A stretch of DNA of 64,000 nt from Alphaproteobacteria bacterium (GCA_965227515.1 CBDDFZ010000001.1:2752001-2816000); one strand, 5' to 3'. Shown: positions 1 to 11,401, counted from the first letter of the stretch. Translations and numbers: made by a program. The notes: generated from the letters alone by a model not told the origin.

Positions 1-129
1 GTGCATGACCCAAAGAATCAACTGAATGCCGTGGCGGAAAAATTCGCTCCCTATCAAGTCCGCAGAGAGGATGTCGCATTTTACTATGTAGACGCTTCGA
101 GCGCGAATGTCTGGGGGCATACGGCATGA
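1..129 (+). CDS. 3' end of an unidentified gene upstream of hsdR (truncated by window start)
   Basis: Frame +1 is open from base 1 (VHDPKNQLNAVAEKFAPYQVRREDVAFYYVDASSANVWGHTA*). Its TGA overlaps the hsdR ATG (ATGA at 126-129). Confidence 0.6.
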   Translation: MHDPKNQLNAVAEKFAPYQVRREDVAFYYVDASSANVWGHTA

Positions 130-3100
130 GCACCCCCAACACTGCAGAGCAATACTCTGCACATATTCCCGCTCTGCAAGTGCTCATGTCTCTTGGCTGG
201 CGCTTCATGCCGGCCGGCGAGTGCATTGAGCGGCGTGGTGGCAATAAGGTAGTTATCCTAAAGGAAATTCTCATTGAGGCGCTTAGGAAGCGCCGTTTCG
301 AGTACAAAGGACAATCATACCCACTATCTAATAATGCAATCGAGCAAATCGTCCGAGAGCTAACCTCGCCGCACCTTCAAGAAGGTCTTCTGACGGCCAA
401 CGAGCAACTCTACAACGCATTAACGCTCGGCATCACGGTGACCGAGTTCGTTGACGGCAAGAAGCACTCACCAACGATTCCGATTATTGATTGGAGTAAT
501 CCTGACGGTAACAACTTTACCGTTACCGAGGAGTTTGAAGTTCTTACCTCGGATGGGACACGCACGCGACGGCCCGACATCGTGTGCCTCGTAAACGGTA
601 TCCCCCTTGCCATTATCGAAGCCAAGCGACCCGACTCCGGTAATCCCAACAAATCGATGATCGATGAAGGTATAAGCCAGAGCATCCGTAATCAGAAATC
701 CGACGAGGTGCCGGAACTCTTCGCATACTCGCAGTTACTCATGTCCATCAGCGGACTTGACGGACGCTATGCGACCACAAAAACGCCCAAGAAGTTTTGG
801 ACGCGTTGGAGAGAAGAGGAACTGTCAGAAGCGTGGTTCAAAGAAGTTAGGAATAAGCCATTGTCACTGAGCGAGCGGGACGCGTTGTTGTTTGGTAAAC
901 CGAAATCCGTACAGGAACACTTTCGTGATCTGTGGGGCGCGGAGCAATTTGTTACCGACCAAGATCGAATGCTGATAAGCTTGCTCGCCAGAGATCGTCT
1001 GCTAGAGTTTGTGAAATTCTTCATACTATTTGACAAGAAGGCGGGCAAGATTGCCGCCCGATATCAGCAAGTTTTTGGCATCAAGGCGCTGATAGACCGA
1101 ATTTCGCAGGTGCGCCCCGACGGCGGACGCGAAGGCGGTGTGATCTGGCATACCACAGGTTCGGGCAAGAGCTTCACGATGGTCTTCCTGTGCAAGGCGC
1201 TCCTTCTGCACAGAAACCTCAGTGACTGCAGGGTCGTGGTCGTGACTGATCGGCTCGATCTGGAAAAGCAGCTTGCTCGCACTTTCCTGACCGGAGGGGC
1301 GCTTGGGAAGCTCAGCGCTGGTAGGAGAGAAGAGAACCGAGCCAAGGCGGCCACGGGGCGGGACCTGGCCAAGCGAATTGGAAAGGGGAACGAGCGGATA
1401 ATTTTCTCGATCATCAACAAGTTTGGAACCGCCTCCAGGCTCGCTGAGTGCTTCAACCCAAGCCCAAACATCATCGTTCTCGTCGACGAAGGGCACCGTA
1501 GTCAGAGCGGCGAGAATCATGAGCGGATGCGCAAGGCCCTGCCGAACGCCTCGTACGTGGCGTTCACGGGAACTCCACTCCTGAAGGACGACAAGACGAC
1601 CAACAAGTTCGGTCCGATTGTCCATGCCTATACGATGCAGCGCGCCGTCGAAGATGGAACCGTAACGCCCCTTCTATATGAAGAGCGTCGACCCGTTCTG
1701 GATATCAATGCAAAGGCCATAGATAACTGGTTCGACAAGATCACGGTCGGCCTGTCTGACAAGCAGAAAAGCGACCTAAAAGAAAAGTACGGCAAGAAGG
1801 GTCCCATGTACGGATCAGCAAATCGGATCGATCTAGTGGCCTGGGATATTGCCGTACATTTCAACGAAAACTTTAGAGCGTTGGGGAAGGACTTGAAGGG
1901 ACAGCTAGCCACGGACAGCAAGCTTTCAGCAATCCGGTACAAGAAGGCTCTCGACGCTACTGGCCTTGTGACCAGTGCTGTTGTCATATCTCCCCCGGAT
2001 ACTCGTGAGGGCCACGAAGATGTGGATGAGGCGGAGTTGCCCGAGGTGCAGCAGTGGTGGAAGGATAATATCAAGGGCGCTCCCGAAGACTATGAGCGTG
2101 ATGTGATTGAAGCATTTTCCGAACCAGGGCCGCCCGACATCCTTATTGTGGTGGACAAATTGCTGACTGGCTTCGATGAGCCTAAGAATGCGGTGCTCTA
2201 TATCGATAAGCCGCTCAAGCATCATAATATTATACAGGCAATCGCGCGGGTTAATCGCCTGCATGACGCGAAGAAATATGGCCTGCTAATTGACTACAGA
2301 GGCATTCTTAAGGAATTGGATACCGCCATTGACGGTTATCAGGACCTTGCTGAGCGCACACAAGCCGGATTTGATATCGATGATATTCAAGGCCTCTACG
2401 CTGATGTCTCTACCGAATATAAGCGGCTCCCGGCATTACACGAGAACCTTCTAGGTGTGTTTTCGGAGGTGAAGAACCGCGCCGATCTAGAACAGTACCG
2501 GCAGATTCTTATACCAAAAGTTGAGATTGATGAGTATGGGGAGGCTTCGGATGAACATCAAAAGGTCCGAGAGGATTTCTATGAAGCACTGACTGAGTTT
2601 GGCATCTGTCTAAAGGTCGCGCTGGGGTCGCGCTCGTTTTTTGAAGATGCGGCTGTCTCAGAGCAGGAAATTCAGACATATAAGCGTGATCTCAAGTTTT
2701 TTAGTGAGCTGCGACGCATTGCGAAACGCGATGCTCAGGAGACAGTCGATTTCAATGCCTACGAAGACCAGATCAGACGCCTGGTTGATCGCTATGTTCT
2801 TGGGGAGGAAATTCAGGAATCAGAAGGGGTCTACGTTGTCAACGATCTGGGTCAGAAAGAGAGAGCTGAAAAGTGGACACCGGAGAAGCTCAAGAACGAG
2901 ACCGATATCATCCGTTCGCGTGTGAAGAGAACGATTGAGCAGGATCTTGCTGATGATCCATATGCCCAGGCCTACTTTTCTGAACTATTGAGGCAGGCAA
3001 TCCATGAGGCGGAGGCGCTCTTCGAGCATCCGTTTAAGCAATACGCTCTGTTTAGGGACTTTGAAGACGAGGTTAAGGGGCGACGGGTAGAAGGAATGCC

Positions 3101-3398
3101 TCCGTCGTTGGGTGAGAATAAGCACGCGGCAGCCTACTACGGCATTTTCAAGCTCGTGCTAGGCAGCGATTTTGAGCAAGAGGAGACCTCTGACATTGCT
3201 GATATAAGTCTTGAGATCGACCGGATCGTTGTTGTTTCCGTAGCGGAGAACTCGCTGAATCCGCAGAATATCGAGGCGGCGATCCGCAAAAAGGTACTTC
3301 CTCTTCTTTTCAAGCGTATCGGTCTGGATCGGGCGAAAAATGTGTGTGAGCGCATTGTCGAAGTCACAAAGCTTGGCCTTTCGCGGGGTGACTTCTGA
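126..3398 (+). CDS. hsdR: Type I restriction endonuclease subunit R
   Basis: Nuclease motif RPDIVCLVNGIPLAIIEAK, Walker A HTTGSGKS, DEGHRS, FTGTP, LLTGFD, QAIARVNR; 1090 aa; less GC-rich than the host genes. Confidence 0.96.
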   Translation: MSTPNTAEQYSAHIPALQVLMSLGWRFMPAGECIERRGGNKVVILKEILIEALRKRRFEYKGQSYPLSNNAIEQIVRELTSPHLQEGLLTANEQLYNALTLGITVTEFVDGKKHSPTIPIIDWSNPDGNNFTVTEEFEVLTSDGTRTRRPDIVCLVNGIPLAIIEAKRPDSGNPNKSMIDEGISQSIRNQKSDEVPELFAYSQLLMSISGLDGRYATTKTPKKFWTRWREEELSEAWFKEVRNKPLSLSERDALLFGKPKSVQEHFRDLWGAEQFVTDQDRMLISLLARDRLLEFVKFFILFDKKAGKIAARYQQVFGIKALIDRISQVRPDGGREGGVIWHTTGSGKSFTMVFLCKALLLHRNLSDCRVVVVTDRLDLEKQLARTFLTGGALGKLSAGRREENRAKAATGRDLAKRIGKGNERIIFSIINKFGTASRLAECFNPSPNIIVLVDEGHRSQSGENHERMRKALPNASYVAFTGTPLLKDDKTTNKFGPIVHAYTMQRAVEDGTVTPLLYEERRPVLDINAKAIDNWFDKITVGLSDKQKSDLKEKYGKKGPMYGSANRIDLVAWDIAVHFNENFRALGKDLKGQLATDSKLSAIRYKKALDATGLVTSAVVISPPDTREGHEDVDEAELPEVQQWWKDNIKGAPEDYERDVIEAFSEPGPPDILIVVDKLLTGFDEPKNAVLYIDKPLKHHNIIQAIARVNRLHDAKKYGLLIDYRGILKELDTAIDGYQDLAERTQAGFDIDDIQGLYADVSTEYKRLPALHENLLGVFSEVKNRADLEQYRQILIPKVEIDEYGEASDEHQKVREDFYEALTEFGICLKVALGSRSFFEDAAVSEQEIQTYKRDLKFFSELRRIAKRDAQETVDFNAYEDQIRRLVDRYVLGEEIQESEGVYVVNDLGQKERAEKWTPEKLKNETDIIRSRVKRTIEQDLADDPYAQAYFSELLRQAIHEAEALFEHPFKQYALFRDFEDEVKGRRVEGMPPSLGENKHAAAYYGIFKLVLGSDFEQEETSDIADISLEIDRIVVVSVAENSLNPQNIEAAIRKKVLPLLFKRIGLDRAKNVCERIVEVTKLGLSRGDF

Positions 3399-4123
3399 TG
3401 GATGGGATACTGGGTTATGGCGGAGAGAGGATTAGGTATACCGTTGCCCGAAACCCGAGCCTGTCGTCCAGAGTTCGGATTCATGTTCATCCTAATGGAC
3501 TGATAGAGGCCGAGGCACCGCCGGACGCCCTTCCGGCTGACATAAAGGCAGCCCTGCGTAAACGTGCGCGATGGATCACGCGTCAGCTCCGCGAACTCGC
3601 GGGCGCTCGGGCTCACGCATTGCCTCGGGAGTTTGTGAGCGGCGAAACGCATTTTTTCCTCGGTAGGCGATTTCAGCTGAAAGTCATTCAGTCTGACGAC
3701 GAGCCATCGTCGGTGCTTCTCAAGGGTGGGCAGATCAGGATCACCCTGCCCTGTTTCGACCGGGCGGCGGTGAAGCGGAGGCTGAATGACTGGTACTGGG
3801 CCAAGGCTGAGGATTACCTGGGTCGGCGCCTCAGCGAGGTCGCAACACGCATCGCGTGGATTGATGATGAGCCCGAACTCAAACTGCTCGCGATGAGGAA
3901 GCAGTGGGGAAGCTGCTCGCCCTCGGGGGCGATCCATTTGAATCCGTGGCTTGTGCGGGCTCCGCGCGAGTGCATCGATTACGTGATTGTCCACGAGCTT
4001 TGTCATCTGAGAGAGCACAATCACAGCAGGCGTTTCTACAGCCTGTTGGATCGGCAGATGCCGGGCTGGCGTCACACCAAAACTCGGCTCGACGGGATGG
4101 CCGAGCTGCTGCTCGCGGAATGA
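3398..4123 (+). CDS. M48/YgjP-like (DUF45) zinc metalloprotease-family protein, typically downstream of hsdR
   Basis: QWGSCS and YVIVHELCHLREHNHS (HExxH); start overlaps the hsdR stop. Confidence 0.9.
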   Translation: MDGILGYGGERIRYTVARNPSLSSRVRIHVHPNGLIEAEAPPDALPADIKAALRKRARWITRQLRELAGARAHALPREFVSGETHFFLGRRFQLKVIQSDDEPSSVLLKGGQIRITLPCFDRAAVKRRLNDWYWAKAEDYLGRRLSEVATRIAWIDDEPELKLLAMRKQWGSCSPSGAIHLNPWLVRAPRECIDYVIVHELCHLREHNHSRRFYSLLDRQMPGWRHTKTRLDGMAELLLAE

Positions 4124-4300
4124 CTTCTACACAAATCGCATCCAACCAGCGCGAGGTTGGTCGCAGGGTCCAGGGTGCGCGACAGGCACCTTGGTCATGG
4201 GGGTGTCGGGGGCTATTGCCCTGACGAGTGGTCAATCGGCGATACGATTGAATGGCGCGGAATTAGGCTCGATGCCTAGACGCGCCACAGGCCGGGGGGA

Positions 4301-4401
4301 TGCAACGGGGGCGCGCAGCGGGCCCCCTTGCCAAGAGGCGCTGTATTACAGCGCACATCTTGCGGAACGCATGAACCATCCAATTGGAACAGGTGTATTA
4401 C
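4301..4401. other. Palindrome cluster, candidate oriT or protein-binding site
   Basis: GGGGGC..GCCCCC hairpin (4307-4327); perfect inverted repeat GCGCTGTA-T-TACAGCGC (4338-4354) framed by CAAGA/TCTTG; TGTATTAC repeated at 4342 and 4394. Confidence 0.4.
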
Positions 4402-4440
4402 GTCCTACAGGCTGCCCAAGGTTCCGGTCGGAAATAGGTC

Positions 4441-5010
4441 TCACCCGGCACGCTGAACCCGCTTGCTCGCTGTGCGGTACGCGCGCCAGGCTCGGTCACG
4501 AGCGCTCTTGCCTCGTTCAACCAGGGCTCGCTGCGCCTCGTCCTGCACAGGTGCGCTGCGGCGGCGATCCCAGATCAGTTCGGCCTGCGCATAGCGGACG
4601 TAGGCCCGCACTCTTTCGGCTTGGACGGCATCCAACTCCGGCTCCTGATCGATGGGTCCGGTTAGCTCGATGATCTTGTGGATGTGCTTGCGGACCAGCC
4701 GGGGCGGCAGTTCGTCCAGCCAGTGAATCAGTTTGGCGGAATGGGGATAGACCTTGTCCTTCCGAACGCCTCGCCTTTCTCGTAGCTGGCGTTTCACCGC
4801 CGGGGGCAAGCCAGGATCATCCGCCGTCATTGCGGCGTCCGAGTAGTACCCTGTGAGGATCAAGCGCCAGCGAATCTGGCTGTAGCGGAGATAGACCGTG
4901 TTGCGGCTGAGGCCGCATACGTCGGCTGCTTCCGCGGGCGTTCGTCGTTCCGAGTAGCATCGAAGCAGCGTTTCAGCCTGCGCGGCTGTCATGCGGCTGC
5001 GCTTGCTCAC
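4441..5010 (-). CDS. HTH DNA-binding protein resembling an IS1595-family transposase without its DDE core
   Basis: N-terminal HTH TPAEAADVCGLSRNTVYLRYSQIRWRL; KRQLRERRGVRKDKVYPH resembles the IS1595/IS1016 C-terminal motif. Confidence 0.55.
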   Translation of the reverse strand: MSKRSRMTAAQAETLLRCYSERRTPAEAADVCGLSRNTVYLRYSQIRWRLILTGYYSDAAMTADDPGLPPAVKRQLRERRGVRKDKVYPHSAKLIHWLDELPPRLVRKHIHKIIELTGPIDQEPELDAVQAERVRAYVRYAQAELIWDRRRSAPVQDEAQRALVERGKSARDRAWRAYRTASKRVQRAG

Positions 5011-5271
5011 GACCGCCAGCTCTAGAGGCTCCTCAGCCTGCTAACTGCGACACGTATCATGGCGTGTTTTCAGATAGATAAGTCCGGTTTGCGTCAGTCT
5101 GTCTTGTCATATGTTCGGTCGCCAGCCTTGGCAAGGCCTTGCGGCGGGCACACACTCAATCAGCGCTCATCGCGCTTCCACAAGAATCCTTCGTCCACGC
5201 CGCGAGCAACGCTTTGACCAGGACTCCGTCCTGGCCGGGCGTGCGGATCAGAGCGGCGACGGAGGACAGCC

Positions 5272-5715
5272 ATGATCTATTGCAGACACTGCGGGCAGCA
5301 CGTTTGGAAGGCTGGCAGCCATGCCGCCAATGACAACGAGCAGCTTGCTCCTGACATCTATGTCGCGAGCGACTGGGAGCTTCGGCGTGCGGCGCACTAT
5401 TGCCGCATGGCGATCGTGCTCGGCGAGCTGAAGAAGAGTCTCGGCCTGCCGCGCCGCCAGATTGCCGATTGGCTGTCCGACACGATCTACTCCTACCCAG
5501 GCCGCATCCTCTTGCCAGACGGGCGGCCCTATTCCCTGCCGGAGATCGATGACGCCTTCAACAACGACGGCTCCTTCCGATGGCTGTCGGATTTTCTCCG
5601 CGCCACTACCGAGCCGCCACGCCAGCAGCCGCAGCGGCGCATTCTGGCCCGGCTCCGTCTGATCGATCTCGCACTGCGCATCGACAAGCACCGCCGCGAC
5701 CAATGCAGCCAATAA
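5272..5715 (+). CDS. Hypothetical protein with N-terminal CxxC
   Basis: GGAGGA RBS before the ATG; MIYCRHCG; protein-like composition. Confidence 0.6.
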   Translation: MIYCRHCGQHVWKAGSHAANDNEQLAPDIYVASDWELRRAAHYCRMAIVLGELKKSLGLPRRQIADWLSDTIYSYPGRILLPDGRPYSLPEIDDAFNNDGSFRWLSDFLRATTEPPRQQPQRRILARLRLIDLALRIDKHRRDQCSQ

Positions 5716-5827
5716 GGCGCACGACTTCCGCCCGGCTTCCGCCCACGCGGCGGGGCCGGGCCCAATAGAAGGGTCGGCAAGCGCGCTGGCCGACTGGGTT
5801 GGCGCTCGCCACGGCAGAGGAGAGCGG

Positions 5828-6124
5828 ATGACCTTTCGGGACAAGCAACGTGAAGCCGGGCGATCGATGCTTGCGGGCTCGATCAAGGGCCTCGGCAATC
5901 TGGCGGCGGCAGCAGCGACGTTCCTGCTCACGCCGCTCGCATATGGCGCGACGATCGACTGGGTCGAGGATTTCACGTCCGAGCACTACGGCCGCGACTG
6001 GACGGACATCAGCGGAATCGTCTGGTTCGTGATCGTGGCAGGGGTCGTGTTCTTCACGGCTCGGGCGTCGATCACGACGCTGATCACGATGGGCGGGTTC
6101 GCGCTCGCCTCGCGCCTGTTCTGA
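5828..6124 (+). CDS. Small membrane protein (2-3 TM)
   Basis: GAGGAG RBS; hydrophobic segments LAAAAATFLLTPLAYG and IVWFVIVAGVVFF. Confidence 0.7.
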   Translation: MTFRDKQREAGRSMLAGSIKGLGNLAAAAATFLLTPLAYGATIDWVEDFTSEHYGRDWTDISGIVWFVIVAGVVFFTARASITTLITMGGFALASRLF

Positions 6125-6148
6125 GCAACCTGAGAAAGGAGAACCGTG

Positions 6149-6277
6149 ATGGCTCAGTATGACCGGGTTGGCGGCGGAACCTTCGGCGTCTATCGCAAGC
6201 GCGGTGGCGGCGGAGGTTGGGGAGGCGCGATCGTGCTGATCGCGATCGGCCTCCTCGTGCTGGCATCGATCGGCTAG
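6149..6277 (+). CDS. 42-aa single-TM small protein (absent from the ORF track)
   Basis: AAAGGAGA RBS; MAQYDRVGGGTFGVYRKRGGGGGWGGAIVLIAIGLLVLASIG*. Confidence 0.65.
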   Translation: MAQYDRVGGGTFGVYRKRGGGGGWGGAIVLIAIGLLVLASIG

Positions 6278-6296
6278 CGCTCCACCCCAACCCATC

Positions 6297-6324
6297 GAAC
6301 GGGGGGCCTTCGGGCCCCCCGTTC
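6297..6324 (+). promoter_or_regulatory. 12-bp GC stem with C(UUCG)G tetraloop just before the T4CP RBS
   Basis: GAACGGGGGGCC-TTCG-GGCCCCCCGTTC; no U-tract follows. Confidence 0.6.
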
Positions 6325-6339
6325 TCGTTGGAGAGACCA

Positions 6340-7950
6340 ATGTCACACCCGTTCAACGAAGAGCATCGCTTCGGTAGCGCTAATTGGTCAGATGAAGCCG
6401 ACATGCGGGCGGCTGGCCTGTTTGACTCTGATGGTCCGCAGATCGGCTATGTCGGCAGCCGGGCCATGCATCTCTCGGGCGATGCCCCGATGATCACGAT
6501 CGGCGGCGCAGGCTCGGGCAAGCTCCGGGACCTGCTGGCCTACGTGGTCTGCAATTCGCCCGGCATTCCGATGATCGTGCTCGATCCACGCGGTGAGTTG
6601 GGCGCGATCTCGATCCATGTCCATGCGGGACATGATGAATATGCCTACTTCTGGAACCCAGTCCGCACCTGCAACCTGCCGCAGCATCGCTGCAACCCGC
6701 TCGACATCCTGAAGCTCGATGCGCCGGACTTCCATGCGAACGTGCGGTTCATCACCGAGGGCTTCATCGCGCTGCGCGGCGGTGAAGGTCAGTATTTCTG
6801 TATGCGCGCCCGCGAATGGATGGGGGGCATTCTCAAGTCCCGCGTCGAGCAGCTCGGCGGCACGTCGCTGCCGGACCTCTACCGCATCGTCAACTCCATC
6901 GAGTCCGACCGCACCGCCTGGGCGGATCAGCTAGAGGCCATGCTTGTCAGTCGGTTCGACGATGTGCGCCGCGTAGCTGCGGAGATGCTGACCAAACAGC
7001 AGGACGCGCCGAAGGAATTCGGCGGCATCCTGGGCGAGATTTATGCCCATCTCGGCTTCCTCGACGATCCGGTGCTACTGGCCTCTCTCGAAGAGCCGGA
7101 GTTTTCGCTCTCTGCGCTCGTCGATCCAAGCCGCGTGGCGAAGGTCTTCCTGAACATCCCCGCCGAGTATCTCGCGCTCTGGTCGCCCCTGGTCCGGCTC
7201 TTCTTCACCGTGGCCATGCTCTATAAATCGCGGCGTCCGGGCGGTCGGCGCGTCATGCTCGTGGTCGACGAGGCGGGCCAGCTCGGGCGTTTCGAAACGC
7301 TCTTGCGCGCGTTCACTTATGGACGCGGCGCGGGCGTTCGCGCCTGGGCCATATTCCAGGACGCCGGACAGATCGTCCGCAATTTCGGTGCCCCCGCGCT
7401 TCAGGGATTCCTCGGCTCGGCGCAGATGCGTCAGTTCTTCGGCGTGCGCGACTACGAGACGGCACAACTGATCTCCTCGATGCTGGGCACCGAGACGCTG
7501 GAATATGACGACAAGCTTCAACAGGACGCGGCCAAGCGCCAGAAGTGGGAGACGCTGCGCCGGGTGATGAGCGACGGCGATCCGTTCGAAGCGGCGTATG
7601 ACTATGCGCACTTCAAGCGCAATGCCGGGCACCGTACCAAGCAGGCGCGTCCCCTCATGACACCCGACGAGGTGTTGGCGCTGCCGGAGGATCGCCAGAT
7701 CCTTTTCATCTCGGGAAAGAATCTGAAGCCGATCCTCGCGGCCAAGTACCCCTACTTCACGCGCCGCGAGATGGCGGGCAAGTACCTGGCGAACCCCTAT
7801 CACCCACCCACGGACAGCGTTGTCGTCGCCACTCGTCTGGGCATGCGCCGCCGTCGGGTAATCACGGAGCCCGTGCCTCGGCGCTACGCAGGTTTCCCCC
7901 AGTTCCAGGGCGGAACCTTGTCATACGTGGAAGGTCACAAACCGGTCTGA
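6340..7950 (+). CDS. Type IV coupling protein, TraG/VirD4 family
   Basis: FGSANW, Walker A GGAGSGK, LDPRGE, CNPL, Walker B LVVDEAGQLG, FQDAGQ, RPLMTPDEV; GGAGAG RBS before ATG 6340. Confidence 0.88.
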   Translation: MSHPFNEEHRFGSANWSDEADMRAAGLFDSDGPQIGYVGSRAMHLSGDAPMITIGGAGSGKLRDLLAYVVCNSPGIPMIVLDPRGELGAISIHVHAGHDEYAYFWNPVRTCNLPQHRCNPLDILKLDAPDFHANVRFITEGFIALRGGEGQYFCMRAREWMGGILKSRVEQLGGTSLPDLYRIVNSIESDRTAWADQLEAMLVSRFDDVRRVAAEMLTKQQDAPKEFGGILGEIYAHLGFLDDPVLLASLEEPEFSLSALVDPSRVAKVFLNIPAEYLALWSPLVRLFFTVAMLYKSRRPGGRRVMLVVDEAGQLGRFETLLRAFTYGRGAGVRAWAIFQDAGQIVRNFGAPALQGFLGSAQMRQFFGVRDYETAQLISSMLGTETLEYDDKLQQDAAKRQKWETLRRVMSDGDPFEAAYDYAHFKRNAGHRTKQARPLMTPDEVLALPEDRQILFISGKNLKPILAAKYPYFTRREMAGKYLANPYHPPTDSVVVATRLGMRRRRVITEPVPRRYAGFPQFQGGTLSYVEGHKPV

Positions 7951-7966
7951 GATGAAGGGCAGTGTC

Positions 7967-8260
7967 ATGAGCGACGATGTGAAGAGGGACAACACGGGCA
8001 AGGAGATCGACACCGCTCAGAGCAGGAGCAACGGGCCTAGCTTCGTTGCCCTTTCTGCGCGGGATGTCGGGGAGAAGACATACTACAACCGAGTCGGGGC
8101 GGCCTTTCCTCACAAGGACGGTGAGGGCCACACCGTGGATTTGGAATCGGTGCCGGTGAACGGGCGCATCATCTTGCGGACGCCCAAGGACCGGCTTCAA
8201 TCCATGAAGGACGGCACCGGCGCGGCACAGGAGCGCCGGAGCCAGGAGCGTGGTCGATGA
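7967..8260 (+). CDS. Small hypothetical protein of a type seen beside T4CP genes (DUF736-like)
   Basis: Motif YNRVGAAFPHKDGEGHTVDLESVPVNGRIILR; follows the T4CP gene. Confidence 0.65.
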   Translation: MSDDVKRDNTGKEIDTAQSRSNGPSFVALSARDVGEKTYYNRVGAAFPHKDGEGHTVDLESVPVNGRIILRTPKDRLQSMKDGTGAAQERRSQERGR

Positions 8261-8535
8261 GCGGCCCGAACCGCAACACGTTGCACCCGGACATCGCCAC
8301 CAAGGCGGAACTGGAACGCTTGCGCGCAAGCCGTCCGGTTCCGGCTCCCACTCGTCATCTGACGCCGATAGGGCCCGATGCCGAGCACACGAGGCGTTCC
8401 CTGCACGAAGCCGACGAACGGCGCATCAGCTATCTGCAAGATCGGCTGCAACGCGTGCGCGACGGTGCCGAGCGGGATCACAGCTTCGCGCGCCTGCAAG
8501 GCCACGCGAAGGCGGATTTCGGGCGCGAGCAATGA
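8257..8535 (+). CDS. Hypothetical protein, possible coiled coil
   Basis: ATGA overlap with the upstream gene. Confidence 0.55.
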   Translation: MSGPNRNTLHPDIATKAELERLRASRPVPAPTRHLTPIGPDAEHTRRSLHEADERRISYLQDRLQRVRDGAERDHSFARLQGHAKADFGREQ

Positions 8536-8564
8536 AGGCAAACTATTCGTTGCAATGAACACAT

Positions 8565-8579
8565 GTTCATGTTATGTTC
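8565..8579 (+). promoter_or_regulatory. Alphaproteobacterial LexA (SOS) box GTTC-N7-GTTC
   Basis: GTTC-ATGTTAT-GTTC in the AT-rich spacer upstream of the 8632 gene and recombinase. Confidence 0.65.
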
Positions 8580-8631
8580 TCCTCTTCGGTTCACTTGATG
8601 AAGGGGAGAAAGAAACAAGAGGAAGAGCGGC

Positions 8632-8988
8632 GTGACCAACAAACAGCACCAAGGCCAGAGCAATAAGACAGAGGGTGATACGCTGGTCCTGGATAGGCTG
8701 GCGGATCGCAATCCATCGGATTTCGATCCGGCGGAGTATCTCCCCGATATGGAGGAATTCGATCTCAGCGAGGAACAGGCAACGGAGTTGCTGACCACGC
8801 TTTGGGAGATCATGAAAGCCTTCGTCGACCTTGGCTTCGGCGTCGATTCAATCCACCGGATTTTTCCCGAGTTGGTCGGGGTTTCTGGGGAATTGGAAGC
8901 CGATCAGGTAGACTCGAAGGACGACCATCTGACAGACACATTCGACCAAGCCGCGTCCAGCGACGCGGAGCAGAAGAAGGATTCATGA
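8632..8988 (+). CDS. Acidic hypothetical protein translationally coupled to the recombinase
   Basis: FDLSEEQATELLTTLWEIMKAFVDLGFG; ATGA overlap at 8985-8988. Confidence 0.7.
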   Translation: MTNKQHQGQSNKTEGDTLVLDRLADRNPSDFDPAEYLPDMEEFDLSEEQATELLTTLWEIMKAFVDLGFGVDSIHRIFPELVGVSGELEADQVDSKDDHLTDTFDQAASSDAEQKKDS

Positions 8989-10901
8989 GCGAGACCATCA
9001 TCAACAGCAAAGCCGTCATATACTGCCGCGTCTCCAGCACGGCGCAGACGCGGCGCGGCGATGGCCTCGGCTCTCAGGAAACGCGGTGCCGCGAATACGC
9101 GCGCGTGCGCGGCTACGAGATCGTGCAGGTGTTCACCGACGATCTGAGCGGCAGCGCCGTCGACCGTCCTGGCGTCAAGGCGATGCTCTCCTTCCTGAAA
9201 AAGCATCGCAGCAATCCACACGTCATTCTCGTCGACGATATATCGCGCCTGGCCCGCTCGGTGAGCGCGCACATCGAATTGCGTGCCGCGATAACGCTGG
9301 CAGGCGGGCGGCTGGAATCCCCGACCCTCGAATTCAATGACGATGCCGACAGCGAGTTGCAGGAATATATCCTCGCGACCGTCGCGCAGCATCAACGCCG
9401 CAAGAACGCTGAGCAAACCAAGAACCGGATGCGTGCGCGCGTCATGAACGGCTACTGGGTCTTTCAGGCTCCGGTGGGCTACCGCTATGAGAAGTCCGGG
9501 GGGCACGGCAAGGTGCTCGTCCGCGACGAGCCTCTTGCCTCTATCGTGCAAGAGGCGCTCGAAGGCTTCGCCACTGGCCGCTTCCAGATTCAGGCCGAGG
9601 TCAAGCGCTTCCTGGAATCCCATCCTCAGTATCCGCGCGACCGCAACGGTGAAGTCCGCAATCAGCGCGTCACCGAGCTGCTGACCCGTGGCGTGTATGC
9701 CGGGCTGGTCGAAGCGCCGTCCTGGGACGTGGGTGTGCGAGAGGGCAAACACACCGGATTGATCTCGTTGGAGACCTTCCGAAAAATCCAGGACCGCCTC
9801 AACGGCAAGGGCCGTGCGCCGGTCAGAAAGGACCTGAGCGAGGACTTCCCGCTTCGCGGCGCGGTCGTGTGCGGGTGCTGCGGAACGCCACTGACGGCTT
9901 GCTGGTCGTCCGGTCGCAAAGCTCGCTATCCGTATTACCTCTGCCCGAAGCGGGGCTGTGAGAGCTACGGCAAGTCGATCAAGCGCGATCAGATCGAAGG
10001 TGAGTTCGAGGCGCTGCTGCTCACCCTCCGGCCCTCCGAGGGCCTGTTCCGGGTGGCCTGCGCCATGTTCAAGAAGCTCTGGGACACGCGGCTTGAATCC
10101 CACAAGGCCGAAAGCCGTTCGCTCGGCGCTGCGATCACGAAGATCGAGCAGGATGTCGATCAGCTGCTCGACCGGATCGTCGAGACGGATTCGCCGTCGG
10201 TGATCCGTGCCTACGAGAAGCGGATCAAGGAGATGGAGCTGCGCAAGATGGAACTGCGGGAAAAGGTCTCACAGTGCGGGCGACCGATCCTCGGCTTCGA
10301 CGAGTCACTTAGAACCGCCCTCGATTTCCTCGGAAACCCGCAGAAACTCTGGGCTTCTGACCGTATCGATCACAAGCGCGCTGTGCTCAAACTCACCTTT
10401 GGGGAGCGTCTGTCATACACCCGAGATGGAGGGTTTAGAACCGCCGATGTGGCCTTACCTTTCAAGGCTTTAGCCGACTTCTCAGGGGGTAAAAGCAGAA
10501 TGGCGCGCCCGGCAGGATTCGAACCTGCGGCCCCAGGATTAGGAATCCTGTGCTCTATCCTACTGAGCTACGGGCGCCCATGCGGCAGCTCGGCCAGTCC
10601 GGAACGGGTGAGTCCGCGCTGTCGATATGTCCGGCAATCTAGTCGCTGGCGGGCCGAATTCCAAACTGATTGGCAGCAGCGGGGGCGCCCGGTATCGTGG
10701 CGCCGGGCGGACGTGGTGGAATTGGTAGACACAACAGACTTCGCGAACGGGAGTGCCCGTGGGGAAACCCGCGGTGCAGAACCGCTCAAATTCGGGGAAA
10801 GCTTCGCGGCCGGCGCAATTTCACGTGGCCGTTGCCGATCCCGAGCCAAGCCCGTGCCGGGGCCTCTACCGGGCAACGGTGCGGGAAGGTGTAGAGACTA
10901 G
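8985..10901 (+). CDS. Large serine recombinase (integrase); the meaningful part ends near 10,500 and the ORF reads on through the tRNA genes
   Basis: AVIYCRVSS catalytic Ser motif, DRPG, DDISRLAR, APVGY, Zn ribbon CGCCG...YYLC, coiled coil. Confidence 0.93.
   Translation: MSETIINSKAVIYCRVSSTAQTRRGDGLGSQETRCREYARVRGYEIVQVFTDDLSGSAVDRPGVKAMLSFLKKHRSNPHVILVDDISRLARSVSAHIELRAAITLAGGRLESPTLEFNDDADSELQEYILATVAQHQRRKNAEQTKNRMRARVMNGYWVFQAPVGYRYEKSGGHGKVLVRDEPLASIVQEALEGFATGRFQIQAEVKRFLESHPQYPRDRNGEVRNQRVTELLTRGVYAGLVEAPSWDVGVREGKHTGLISLETFRKIQDRLNGKGRAPVRKDLSEDFPLRGAVVCGCCGTPLTACWSSGRKARYPYYLCPKRGCESYGKSIKRDQIEGEFEALLLTLRPSEGLFRVACAMFKKLWDTRLESHKAESRSLGAAITKIEQDVDQLLDRIVETDSPSVIRAYEKRIKEMELRKMELREKVSQCGRPILGFDESLRTALDFLGNPQKLWASDRIDHKRAVLKLTFGERLSYTRDGGFRTADVALPFKALADFSGGKSRMARPAGFEPAAPGLGILCSILLSYGRPCGSSASPERVSPRCRYVRQSSRWRAEFQTDWQQRGRPVSWRRADVVELVDTTDFANGSARGETRGAEPLKFGESFAAGAISRGRCRSRAKPVPGPLPGNGAGRCRD
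10501..10577 (-). tRNA. tRNA-Arg(CCT)
   Basis: Reverse complement GCGCCCGTAGCTCAGTAGGATAGAGCACAGGATTCCTAATCCTGGGGCCGCAGGTTCGAATCCTGCCGGGCGCGCCA; anticodon arm CAGGA-TT-CCT-AA-TCCTG; encoded CCA. Confidence 0.96.
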
Positions 10902-11094
10902 ACGGGCGGCGCCTGGGGCCGGCTTCCGTCGCGTTTGGCGCGTCGGGCGGCCGGTGACGGCGAAGGGATAGTCCAGGCCCCAAACGGCGCGCGCTTTTAC
11001 GCTTCGAGGCGCGGCCGGCGGCGAAAGCCGTGGCGGGTATGAAAATCTGTTGCACCTTGTGTGCGTGCGGGTTCAAGTCCCGCCGTCCGCACCA
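10707..11094 (+). tRNA. tRNA-Leu(TAA) split by a group I intron (exons 10707-10741 and 11042-11094)
   Basis: 5' exon GCGGACGTGGTGGAATTGGTAGACACAACAGACTT plus 3' exon AAAATCTGTTGCACC...GGTTCAAGTCCCGCCGTCCGCACCA rebuild ACAGA-CT-T^AA-AA-TCTGT and a 7-bp acceptor stem. Confidence 0.93.
10742..11041 (+). ncRNA. Group I self-splicing intron (IC3-like), 300 nt, no homing endonuclease ORF
   Basis: Core elements P CTCAAATTCGGGGAAA, Q CCCGAGCCAAG, R GTGTAGAGACTAGACGG, S AAGGGATAGTCC; exon ends in U; intron ends in G. Confidence 0.92.
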
Positions 11095-11181
11095 ATTGCT
11101 TGGGCCGGTTTGCTGATCATGTCGGCACTTGTGCAAGTGCGGCATTGTGGCCGCCCTGAAACGCAACATGCACTCCAAGAT

Positions 11182-11304
11182 CGTCATGCCCGCACTTGTT
11201 GCGGGCATCCACGTCTTTCATTCGGCGATGTCAAGTCGTGGATGGTCCCTCGGGACCGGCCAAAGGCCGGCCCGAGGACAGGCTCACCAAGCCCGACCAT
11301 GACG
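11182..11304. repeat. REP-like palindromic element (GTCATGCCCG...CGGGCATCCAC family)
   Basis: CGTCATGCCCGCACTTGTTGCGGGCATCCACGTC...CCATGACG; a near-identical inverted copy lies at about 51,878-51,912. Confidence 0.75.
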
Positions 11305-11401
11305 ATGGGGAGGGGACATCGCGCGATAACCGGAATGGACCCTCGGCCTTCGGCCAAGGGTCACAAGTGAGAGCGGGTGAGAGGCCGAAGCGCCTTGCCG
11401 C

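Follow-up and report, generated by a model that had tools for sequence, protein, structure and literature searches.

A 64-kb stretch of DNA from an Alphaproteobacteria bacterium (the window; positions 2752001-2816000 of a two-contig, 5.5-Mb genome which is 99.67% complete) was analysed together with the 20 kb immediately to its left (L001). Window positions 4124-10577 are very probably the right half of an integrative and mobilizable element (IME) of about 21 kb, placed at the 3' end of a tRNA-Arg(CCT) gene. The best explanation overall, and one that we hold to be likely, is a backbone without mating-pore genes, which carries its own integrase, relaxosome and coupling ATPase and is probably mobilized by a helper. 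The element extends from approximately 10.4-10.7 kb left of the window to about window base 10500, with its left end bracketed only to L001:9271-9570. The GC content falls from approximately 0.67 to 0.50-0.63 over the interval that runs from about 12 kb left of the window to window base ~10500, and is 0.49-0.57 in the cargo compared to 0.63-0.69 in the flanks. The principal parts are:

4262-4385, no strand assigned: element A, a conserved structured non-coding element with a GC-rich hairpin, a second inverted repeat and a conserved 3' tail
5828-6124, plus strand: TM98, a 98-residue membrane hairpin protein (AlphaFold2, family profile, own ribosome site)
6149-6277, plus strand: TM42, a 42-residue protein with one C-terminal membrane helix (hydrophobicity, own AAGGAG ribosome site)
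6296-6327, plus strand: GC-rich hairpin between the TM42 stop and the ATPase start (12-bp stem, z -4.41)
6340-7950, plus strand: VirD4/TraG-type coupling ATPase, 536 residues (PF02534, PF12696 and PF10412 above cut-off)
8985-10901, plus strand: large serine recombinase, the integrase (Resolvase, Recombinase, Zn_ribbon_recom; the conserved part ends near 10500)
10501-10577, minus strand: tRNA-Arg(CCT), the integration target (ARAGORN; Rfam tRNA 73.3 bits; 3' end facing the island)
L001:11826-12275: NikA-like protein (Pfam)
L001:12206-13567: MobA/VirD2-type relaxase (PF03432, 61.6 bits, cut-off 24.6, E 1.2e-16)

An earlier note on the window had listed the genes from a palindrome cluster to the tRNA-Arg gene, and all of them are present about where it placed them, the helix-turn-helix (HTH) protein by sub-threshold matches only. 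Its description of a defence-carrying mobilizable island also stands; restriction-modification and OLD-family cargo, an integrase, a relaxase and a coupling ATPase are all found in the one element. That no relaxase or VirB gene was in view is correct for the window and incorrect for the island: the NikA-like gene and the PF03432 relaxase lie in the left arm (L001:11826-13567), 6.4-8.2 kb left of window base 1 and within the same island. This relaxase is the sole PF03432 match in the genome, and the island ATPase is the sole coupling protein found there. The mating-pore families PF03135 (VirB4), PF12846 (AAA_10) and PF03743 (TrbI/VirB10) gave zero matches in the host genome, Pfam and NCBIfam searches found no mating-pore domain among the open reading frames (ORFs) of the island, and there were no pore genes among the 56 ORFs of three related loci of 21 kb. 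The earlier note had held that a relaxase together with a full VirB set in the left arm would make the island an ordinary integrative and conjugative element (ICE); the relaxase is there, and the VirB set was found neither in the island nor in the genome. The full type IV secretion gene set that characterises an ICE was not found in the island, the host genome or the three related loci, and the element has its own integrase beside the attachment site, its own relaxase and no type IV secretion genes of its own, as an IME does. Because none of the pore markers searched for was found in island or genome, the element is not an ordinary ICE and is classed as an IME with its own relaxosome and coupling protein.

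The coupling ATPase and its membrane neighbours

The ATPase was matched by PF02534 with an E-value of 1.4e-40 (140 bits, cut-off 20.1), by PF12696 with 78 bits and by PF10412 with 54 bits. It has a Walker A motif, GGAGSGK, at residue 55, and D310 and E311 are invariant in 9 sequences. As the earlier note had it, the protein begins practically at an FGSA motif (residues 11-14) and lacks a membrane helix; the Kyte-Doolittle peak is 1.44, with no hydrophobic segment of 1.6 or more, so that the N-terminal membrane domain of at least two helices which marks the VirD4-type subfamily is not present in it. Residue 12 aligns to residue 107 of a 547-residue anchored coupling protein from a sphingomonad plasmid (29% identity, E 3e-37), which has two hydrophobic stretches in its first 95 or so residues, and the offset between the two proteins is 95 residues. 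The island ATPase starts about 10 residues ahead of the GSA motif, which in the anchored relatives comes after the second membrane helix. A search gave 590 relatives at an E-value of 0.001 or less; the best 120 of the 590 all carry the three coupling-protein domains and are 511-566 residues long, bar one partial sequence of 375 residues. Because the family length is constant, the ATPase is not a truncation; it is natively without a membrane domain. By the missing hydrophobic segment, the alignment from residue 107 of the anchored relative and the constant family length, it can be assigned to the coupling-protein subclass without a membrane domain. No plasmid record contained a protein more than 60% identical to it (best 37%), and the ATPase scored only 87 bits (cut-off 250) with the NCBIfam model of CD1115, a family of short VirD4-like proteins. 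When 400 further genomes of the class were sampled, 9 contained the ATPase family (E 1e-60 or less) at 11 places, with 34-72% identity and no internal stops.

Both small ORFs upstream of the ATPase gene are strongly hydrophobic, with Kyte-Doolittle peaks of 2.16 for the 98-residue and 2.30 for the 42-residue product. The AlphaFold2 model of TM98 consists of two long helices, 3-53 and 56-97, with a predicted local distance difference test score (pLDDT) of 95, and the nearly invariant Tyr54 is placed at the turn of the hairpin. The positive N-terminus, the hydrophobic stretches and the model together suggest a topology with both ends in the cytoplasm and a short outer loop. The membrane domain of TrwB, of about 70 residues, has this same layout (PMC7431656), and the likeness to the modelled TM98 is one of shape only. 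Two other identities were considered for TM98. As a VirB2/TrbC pilin it was rejected, since even at E-values up to 5 no more than 2 of 51 members hit any one Pfam family, and as a known fold it was also rejected, since Foldseek gave no PDB match at an E-value of 0.001 or less and the Atlas gave only unnamed clusters.

The association of the membrane ORFs with the ATPase gene was determined by a neighbourhood check. A scan of a genome collection yielded 11 loci, which were searched by tblastn with the island proteins. The evaluable loci numbered 22, namely the window, 9 of the 11 scanned loci (two without upstream DNA being excluded), the 11 further places from the 400-genome sample and a plasmid of Methylomagnum. 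The conservation that the earlier note's proposal called for was found: a TM98 gene lies directly upstream of the ATPase gene in 21 of the 22, over a range of ATPase identity from 34 to 100%, and a second small membrane ORF lies between the two genes in 17. That second ORF encodes either 37-49 residues with one helix or 62-83 residues with two helices, and occupies the same place in 16 loci besides the window. In the 5 loci without it, 11-40 nt lie between the end of the TM98 frame and the point where the ATPase match begins. A TM98 profile found the gene upstream of the ATPase gene at 11 of 11 places in the 400-genome sample. The 13.2-kb Methylomagnum plasmid (L026), which is gammaproteobacterial, combines TM98 with mobC, a relaxase and an ATPase of 37% identity. 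Against 1.84 billion representative sequences the profile gave 248 clusters, and 148 of the 150 listed are stand-alone proteins of 71-154 residues; the other two are a 246-residue protein, matching over its first 77 residues only, and a repetitive protein of 1259 residues.

A membrane gene conserved beside the gene for an anchorless ATPase, as expected of a coupling protein in two parts, is therefore present in 21 of 22 loci. On gene order, TM98 may be the membrane partner of the ATPase, and we consider the chances of this to be about even. Several points weigh against it. L013, a locus with 48% ATPase identity which does have the second membrane ORF, has no TM98 that could be found, even by profile. 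None of the best 150 of the 248 TM98 family matches is a fused TM98-ATPase form. Profile-profile comparison showed no likeness between TM98 and the N-terminal 120-125 residues of two anchored coupling proteins from plasmids (hhalign probabilities 0.2 and 0.5). Finally, all 6 of the loci that were folded have a terminator-like hairpin at the same place, between the membrane genes and the ATPase gene, and 5 of these hairpins have a clear U-run; in the window the U-tract is weak and the hairpin at 6296-6327 was not called by a terminator scan. With such a hairpin between them, the genes may be expressed at different levels or separately. Prediction of the ATPase + TM98 complex from 9-row alignments scored 0.00 in both runs, with the controls likewise unfolded, and carries no weight either way.

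It is possible, if less probable, that the small membrane proteins are conserved neighbours and not anchors, acting in entry exclusion, in interference with the coupling protein of a helper or in signalling, and that the soluble ATPase docks alone. The hairpin, the locus without TM98 and the difference between TM98 and canonical membrane domains all fit this, as does the second membrane ORF, which varies from 37 to 83 residues and from one to two helices or is absent; moreover, coupling proteins without a membrane domain can transfer their plasmids (PMC7434980). On the other hand, the TM98 and ATPase genes remain adjacent where ATPase identity has fallen to 34%, and also on a plasmid from a different class, the two genes abut in 5 loci, and the start of the ATPase so close to the motif that follows the helices looks like a clean split at a domain border. 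In the partner reading of TM98, the 98-residue hairpin protein, usually with the second micro membrane protein, would hold the anchorless ATPase at the membrane.

Element A, the integrase and the tRNA site

Element A lies in the 317-nt gap 4124-4440, the folding of which has a z-score of -3.89 with 0 of 100 shuffles as good; an exact-seed repeat search of the gap found one 10-nt palindrome only. By blastn, element A is 79-92% identical to 7 other elements whose proteins are far more diverged, and it matches two further places in the same genome. The copy in the Methylomagnum plasmid is just upstream of mobC. Alignment of 10 copies shows an invariant hairpin, GGGGGATGCAACGGGGG ... CCCCCTTGCCAAG (helix 1), in which pairing is 100% and 3 of the 9 pairs have double changes. 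It also shows a second inverted repeat, the two arms of which covary, and a conserved tail, ACATCTTGCGGAACG. Origins of transfer (oriT) of MOBQ/MOBP type usually look like this, with a conserved single-stranded tail after an inverted repeat. On account of this resemblance, element A is put forward as the best oriT candidate.

The two other places in the genome that contain element A were inspected. The first (L041, G000:C1:191001-201000) is an element of about 5.4 kb with element A at 6685-6771, a serine recombinase, fragments like the region upstream of nikA, an IS630-like transposase, and HNH and nucleotidyltransferase ORFs. It has neither relaxase nor coupling protein, and is either a decayed copy or a rider on the large island with an oriT only. 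The second (L040, G000:C1:1584001-1594000) is a remnant of about 2 kb beside tRNA-Arg(CCG) at 8221-8297. It contains a copy of element A at 6299-6385, in reverse orientation, a copy of the nikA-upstream stretch at 7894-8004, and 10 nt like the integrase 3' end adjoining the tRNA, with no integrase.

The integrase has the catalytic domain (PF00239, 93.6 bits), the Recombinase domain (PF07508, 20.3 bits, just below the cut-off of 21.1) and the zinc ribbon (PF13408, 36.8 bits) of a large serine recombinase, with a serine within its N-terminal YCRVSS stretch. It is 78% identical to the integrase of locus L006 and 52% to that of L013. Beyond about 10500 its frame continues in antisense across the tRNA gene and is closed by a stop at 10901. 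The frame meets a tRNA 3' end antisense in four complete elements and one fragment: at Arg-CCT in the window and in L013, Arg-ACG in L006, Glu-CTC in L041 and Leu-TAA in the L007 fragment. When the junctions of the window, L006, L013 and L007 were translated, the frame was found to enter exactly at the tRNA end, reading M-(A/V)-R-..., and the tail beyond that entry is 12 to 133 residues long. For L041, where the integrase is 56% identical (1418-2971, minus strand), only an overlap with tRNA-Glu(CTC) at 1383-1458 was observed. Since the frame crosses the tRNA end, the attachment site must overlap the 3' end of the integrase gene, and the tail of the protein should differ between the integrated and the excised state.

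Proposed mobility of the island and comparison with known systems

The route by which the island would move can be set out as follows. The integrase, perhaps with an acidic protein encoded next to it (s118, see below), would excise the island as a circle, which the relaxase and NikA would nick at the oriT, the best candidate for this being the hairpin element at 4262-4385. The ATPase would then pass the relaxase-DNA complex to the type IV pore of a co-resident conjugative plasmid or ICE, and in the recipient the integrase would insert the island at a tRNA 3' end.

The evidence has gaps that tell against a mobile, helper-driven element of this build. A helper is usually not in view, as a VirB4 (PF03135) match was found in only 3 of 9 other genomes with the ATPase family; PF03135 covers one VirB4 family, and the genome sample is small. 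Two conserved non-coding elements are candidates for the oriT, the alternative to element A being the stretch just upstream of nikA (L001:11561-11670). No direct or inverted repeats were found between the two ends of the island; that no long repeat links them is as expected for a serine integrase. No empty site was available for comparison, since the 30 nearest genomes belong to other genera and show no synteny. In contigs of four public sequencing runs no excision junction or circle was seen. One contig of 21,339 nt, from run X24, extends across the island; tRNA words common to other genes account for its right end, and a 54-nt identical stretch of an internal 126-nt repeat accounts for its left end, and its breaks are therefore no evidence of excision. 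The depth of this contig was 20.4 compared to 11.8-14.3, which is not to be read as a copy number.

It is improbable that the island is a decayed ICE which has lost its type IV secretion genes and is immobile. A relaxase and coupling protein without a pore are called a "pseudo-ICE" in some schemes (PMC10484663), no helper was found in the host genome, and there are two decayed relatives in it. The same pore-less set with intact frames is, however, present in many loci of different families and on the 13-kb plasmid, there are zero internal stops in the 11 further ATPase matches and the ATPase family has kept its length. Such a repeated, conserved build without a pore fits a mobilizable lifestyle better than independent decay. 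Still less credible, despite the lack of VirB4 in 6 of 9 other host genomes and in the host's own and the tight conservation of the membrane genes with the ATPase, is a minimal DNA translocon made of the ATPase and the two membrane micro-proteins and working without a type IV pore, since the island encodes nothing that could reach across the outer membrane or to a recipient, a pore is required for relaxase-based transfer of single strands (PMC5704250), and the VirB4 counts come from the single-family search and small sample described above.

A mobilizable island thus remains the favoured reading, and the kind is a familiar one. IMEs with their own relaxase and VirD4 have been described (Guedon et al. 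2017, PMC5704250), and rules for classifying such elements are in print (PMC10484663). The closest comparison is with IMEs and plasmids that carry their own VirD4 (PMC5704250), among them CloDF13 with MobB/MobC (PMC7431656, PMC7434980). Like the island, these have an integrase or replicon, a relaxase and a VirD4-type protein and no pore, and their own coupling protein is proposed to replace that of the helper. The named examples pair VirD4 with a MobC-class relaxase, whereas the island has a PF03432 relaxase with a NikA-like partner. MobB of CloDF13 has its own three-helix membrane domain, which is essential; the island ATPase has none, and a separate 98-residue membrane gene alongside. The island hosts, unlike those of the named VirD4-bearing examples, are Alphaproteobacteria.

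A soluble VirD4-like ATPase beside a small membrane protein also occurs in the TraJ/TraI pair of pIP501 (class iii of Llosa and Alkorta 2017, as quoted in PMC7431656), where the small membrane protein is thought to complete a VirD4-type complex (PMC7431656). pIP501 is a self-transmissible Gram-positive plasmid with its own pore, whereas the island pair is pore-less and Gram-negative, and TM98 is likened to TraI by description only. The Firmicutes IMEs with serine recombinases, for example Tn4451 (PMC5704250), resemble the island in having a large serine recombinase as sole integrase and no long flanking direct repeats. They insert inside protein-coding genes or at many sites; the island family is found at tRNA 3' ends (Arg-CCT, Arg-ACG, Leu-TAA, Glu-CTC), and its integrase frame runs into the tRNA. 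In the part of that review which lists them, IMEs with serine recombinases come only from Firmicutes and are inserted within genes (PMC5704250), and tRNA targeting is therefore a difference. Mobilizable genomic islands and SGI1-type elements have an oriT only and borrow the relaxosome of another element (PMC5704250). L041 is like these in having an integrase and element A without relaxase or coupling protein; it may instead be a decayed copy, with the IS630-like transposase inside it, and dependence on the relaxase of the large island would only be presumed.

The earlier note's claim of an undescribed system is too strong, since IMEs with their own relaxase and VirD4 and split coupling proteins of the TraJ/TraI type are already in print (PMC5704250, PMC7431656). 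The element is of an ordinary kind, an IME with its own relaxase and coupling protein, and apparently an undescribed alphaproteobacterial variant of it. A search of the full-text literature found no description of this alphaproteobacterial family, which does not prove that there is none. What appears to be new in particular is the proteobacterial TM98-ATPase pair, the tRNA-targeting serine integrase with a frame that crosses its site, and the oriT-like element shared with mini-elements that lack a relaxase.

Taken together, these features allow a reading that is offered tentatively. TM98, usually with the second micro-protein, would form the membrane part, separable from the ATPase, of a coupling protein split in two. 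This would be the Gram-negative equivalent of TraJ/TraI, with hundreds of protein clusters, and would couple the relaxosomes of pore-less islands and small plasmids to unrelated helper pores. There would be three tiers in this genome, ie the pore of the helper, the relaxosome and coupling unit of the island, and relaxase-less mini-elements with only the integrase and the shared oriT-like element, and the integrases at tRNA 3' ends, with their frame across the site, would have a tail that depends on the state of the element.

Other genes of the island and implications

The remaining genes of the island comprise cargo and small backbone proteins:

L001:9574-11556: OLD-family ATPase-TOPRIM nuclease (AAA_15, OLD-like TOPRIM; PADLOC AriA/Old)
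L001:14066 to window 4123: type I restriction-modification cluster (HsdS fragment, HsdM, HsdS, DUF6119/TIGR04141, DUF4917/PDC-S21, HsdR, YgjP-like peptidase)
1-129, plus strand: 3' end of the DUF4917/PDC-S21 gene (Pfam, NCBIfam, PADLOC)
126-3398, plus strand: HsdR, type I restriction subunit (Pfam, NCBIfam, PADLOC)
3398-4123, plus strand: YgjP-like metallopeptidase (Pfam, NCBIfam, PADLOC)
4441-5010, minus strand: 189-residue protein with a weak N-terminal HTH (sub-threshold HTH matches only)
5272-5715, plus strand: CxxC protein, 147 residues, first gene of the conserved block (homologue upstream of the TM98 gene in 7 of 11 loci)
7952-8260, plus strand: s102, small soluble conserved protein (10 of 11 loci and plasmid L026)
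8257-8535, plus strand: s92, small soluble conserved protein (9 of 11 loci); its start overlaps the s102 stop
8632-8988, plus strand: s118, acidic 118-residue protein upstream of the integrase gene, overlapping its start

The defence cargo is an OLD-family nuclease and a type I restriction-modification system with DUF6119 and DUF4917 genes, of which the HsdS fragment, HsdM, HsdS and DUF6119 lie left of the window. The three 21-kb relatives carry other cargo of defence type, including Mrr, Vsr, a C5 methylase and a UvrD-PD-(D/E)XK helicase-nuclease with an AAA_21 ATPase, and further AAA_13, MazG, a 5-hmdU kinase fragment and ParDE.

By tblastn in the 11 scanned loci, matches were found to TM98 in 8, s102 in 10, s92 in 9, the CxxC protein in 7, the relaxase in 6 and the serine integrase in 3. 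The shortfall for TM98 is made up of the two loci without upstream DNA and L013. The order CxxC-TM98-(TM42)-ATPase-s102-s92 is kept across the 11 loci, with the relaxase within 10 kb in 6 and the serine integrase in 3. In L006 the relaxase is found 101 nt beyond the end of the locus, and the order is that of the window, i.e. relaxase, cargo, element A, backbone, integrase, tRNA.

C4 and C7 of the CxxC protein are invariant in 6 homologues, and it has no match in Pfam, NCBIfam, PADLOC or the PDB. L008, L009, L010 and L011 each have two diverged copies of its gene upstream of TM98. No PDB or Pfam match was found for s102 itself, nor any Pfam domain or name in the 120 listed of its 1288 relatives; DUF736, the nearest named cluster in the Atlas at 0.75 only, was rejected as an identity, and the AlphaFold2 model (pLDDT 55.8) was unusable for a structure search. 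A homologue of s118, 48% identical, is at the same place in L006, and an acidic ORF of 130 residues is there in L013; s118 has no family match and may be a directionality factor. The best HTH score of the 189-residue protein was 22.6 bits (Sigma70_r4_2), below the cut-off of 25.7. It had no tblastn match across the 11 related loci and is for that reason placed outside the conserved backbone.

Some features adjoining the island were also seen. An apparent tRNA-Leu(UAA) gene at window 10707-11095 (plus strand) is split by about 331 nt. Both of its ends match tRNA genes of many genomes, and contigs of other organisms join them by about 30 letters that read as a UAA anticodon arm. Within the insert, 10780-10910 matches the group I intron model below threshold (31.3 bits against a gathering score of 50, E 4e-6), and ARAGORN made no call for the split gene. 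At window 11181-11308 there is a sequence of about 65-125 nt with at least 9 copies in the genome (75-93% identity), probably a dispersed intergenic repeat. The 126-nt direct repeat mentioned above (L001:6744-6869 and 9146-9271, 92% identical) is a duplicated 3' end of a SnoaL-like gene which flanks a LysR-MAPEG-SDR segment just left of the island, and may be the scar of another integration.

Mobilizable islands carry defence and other cargo between bacteria, and apart from those of the Firmicutes and of a small number of gammaproteobacterial models they are little known. Coupling proteins are difficult to purify at full length (PMC7431656), and for this reason the roles of their parts towards pore and relaxosome are hard to study. 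An anchorless ATPase with a separate membrane hairpin is a compact, conserved module with which contact with the pore and reading of the relaxosome could be assigned to one part or the other of a coupling protein. The tRNA-targeting serine integrases, together with the sharply conserved candidate oriT, could help to find such islands in other genomes.

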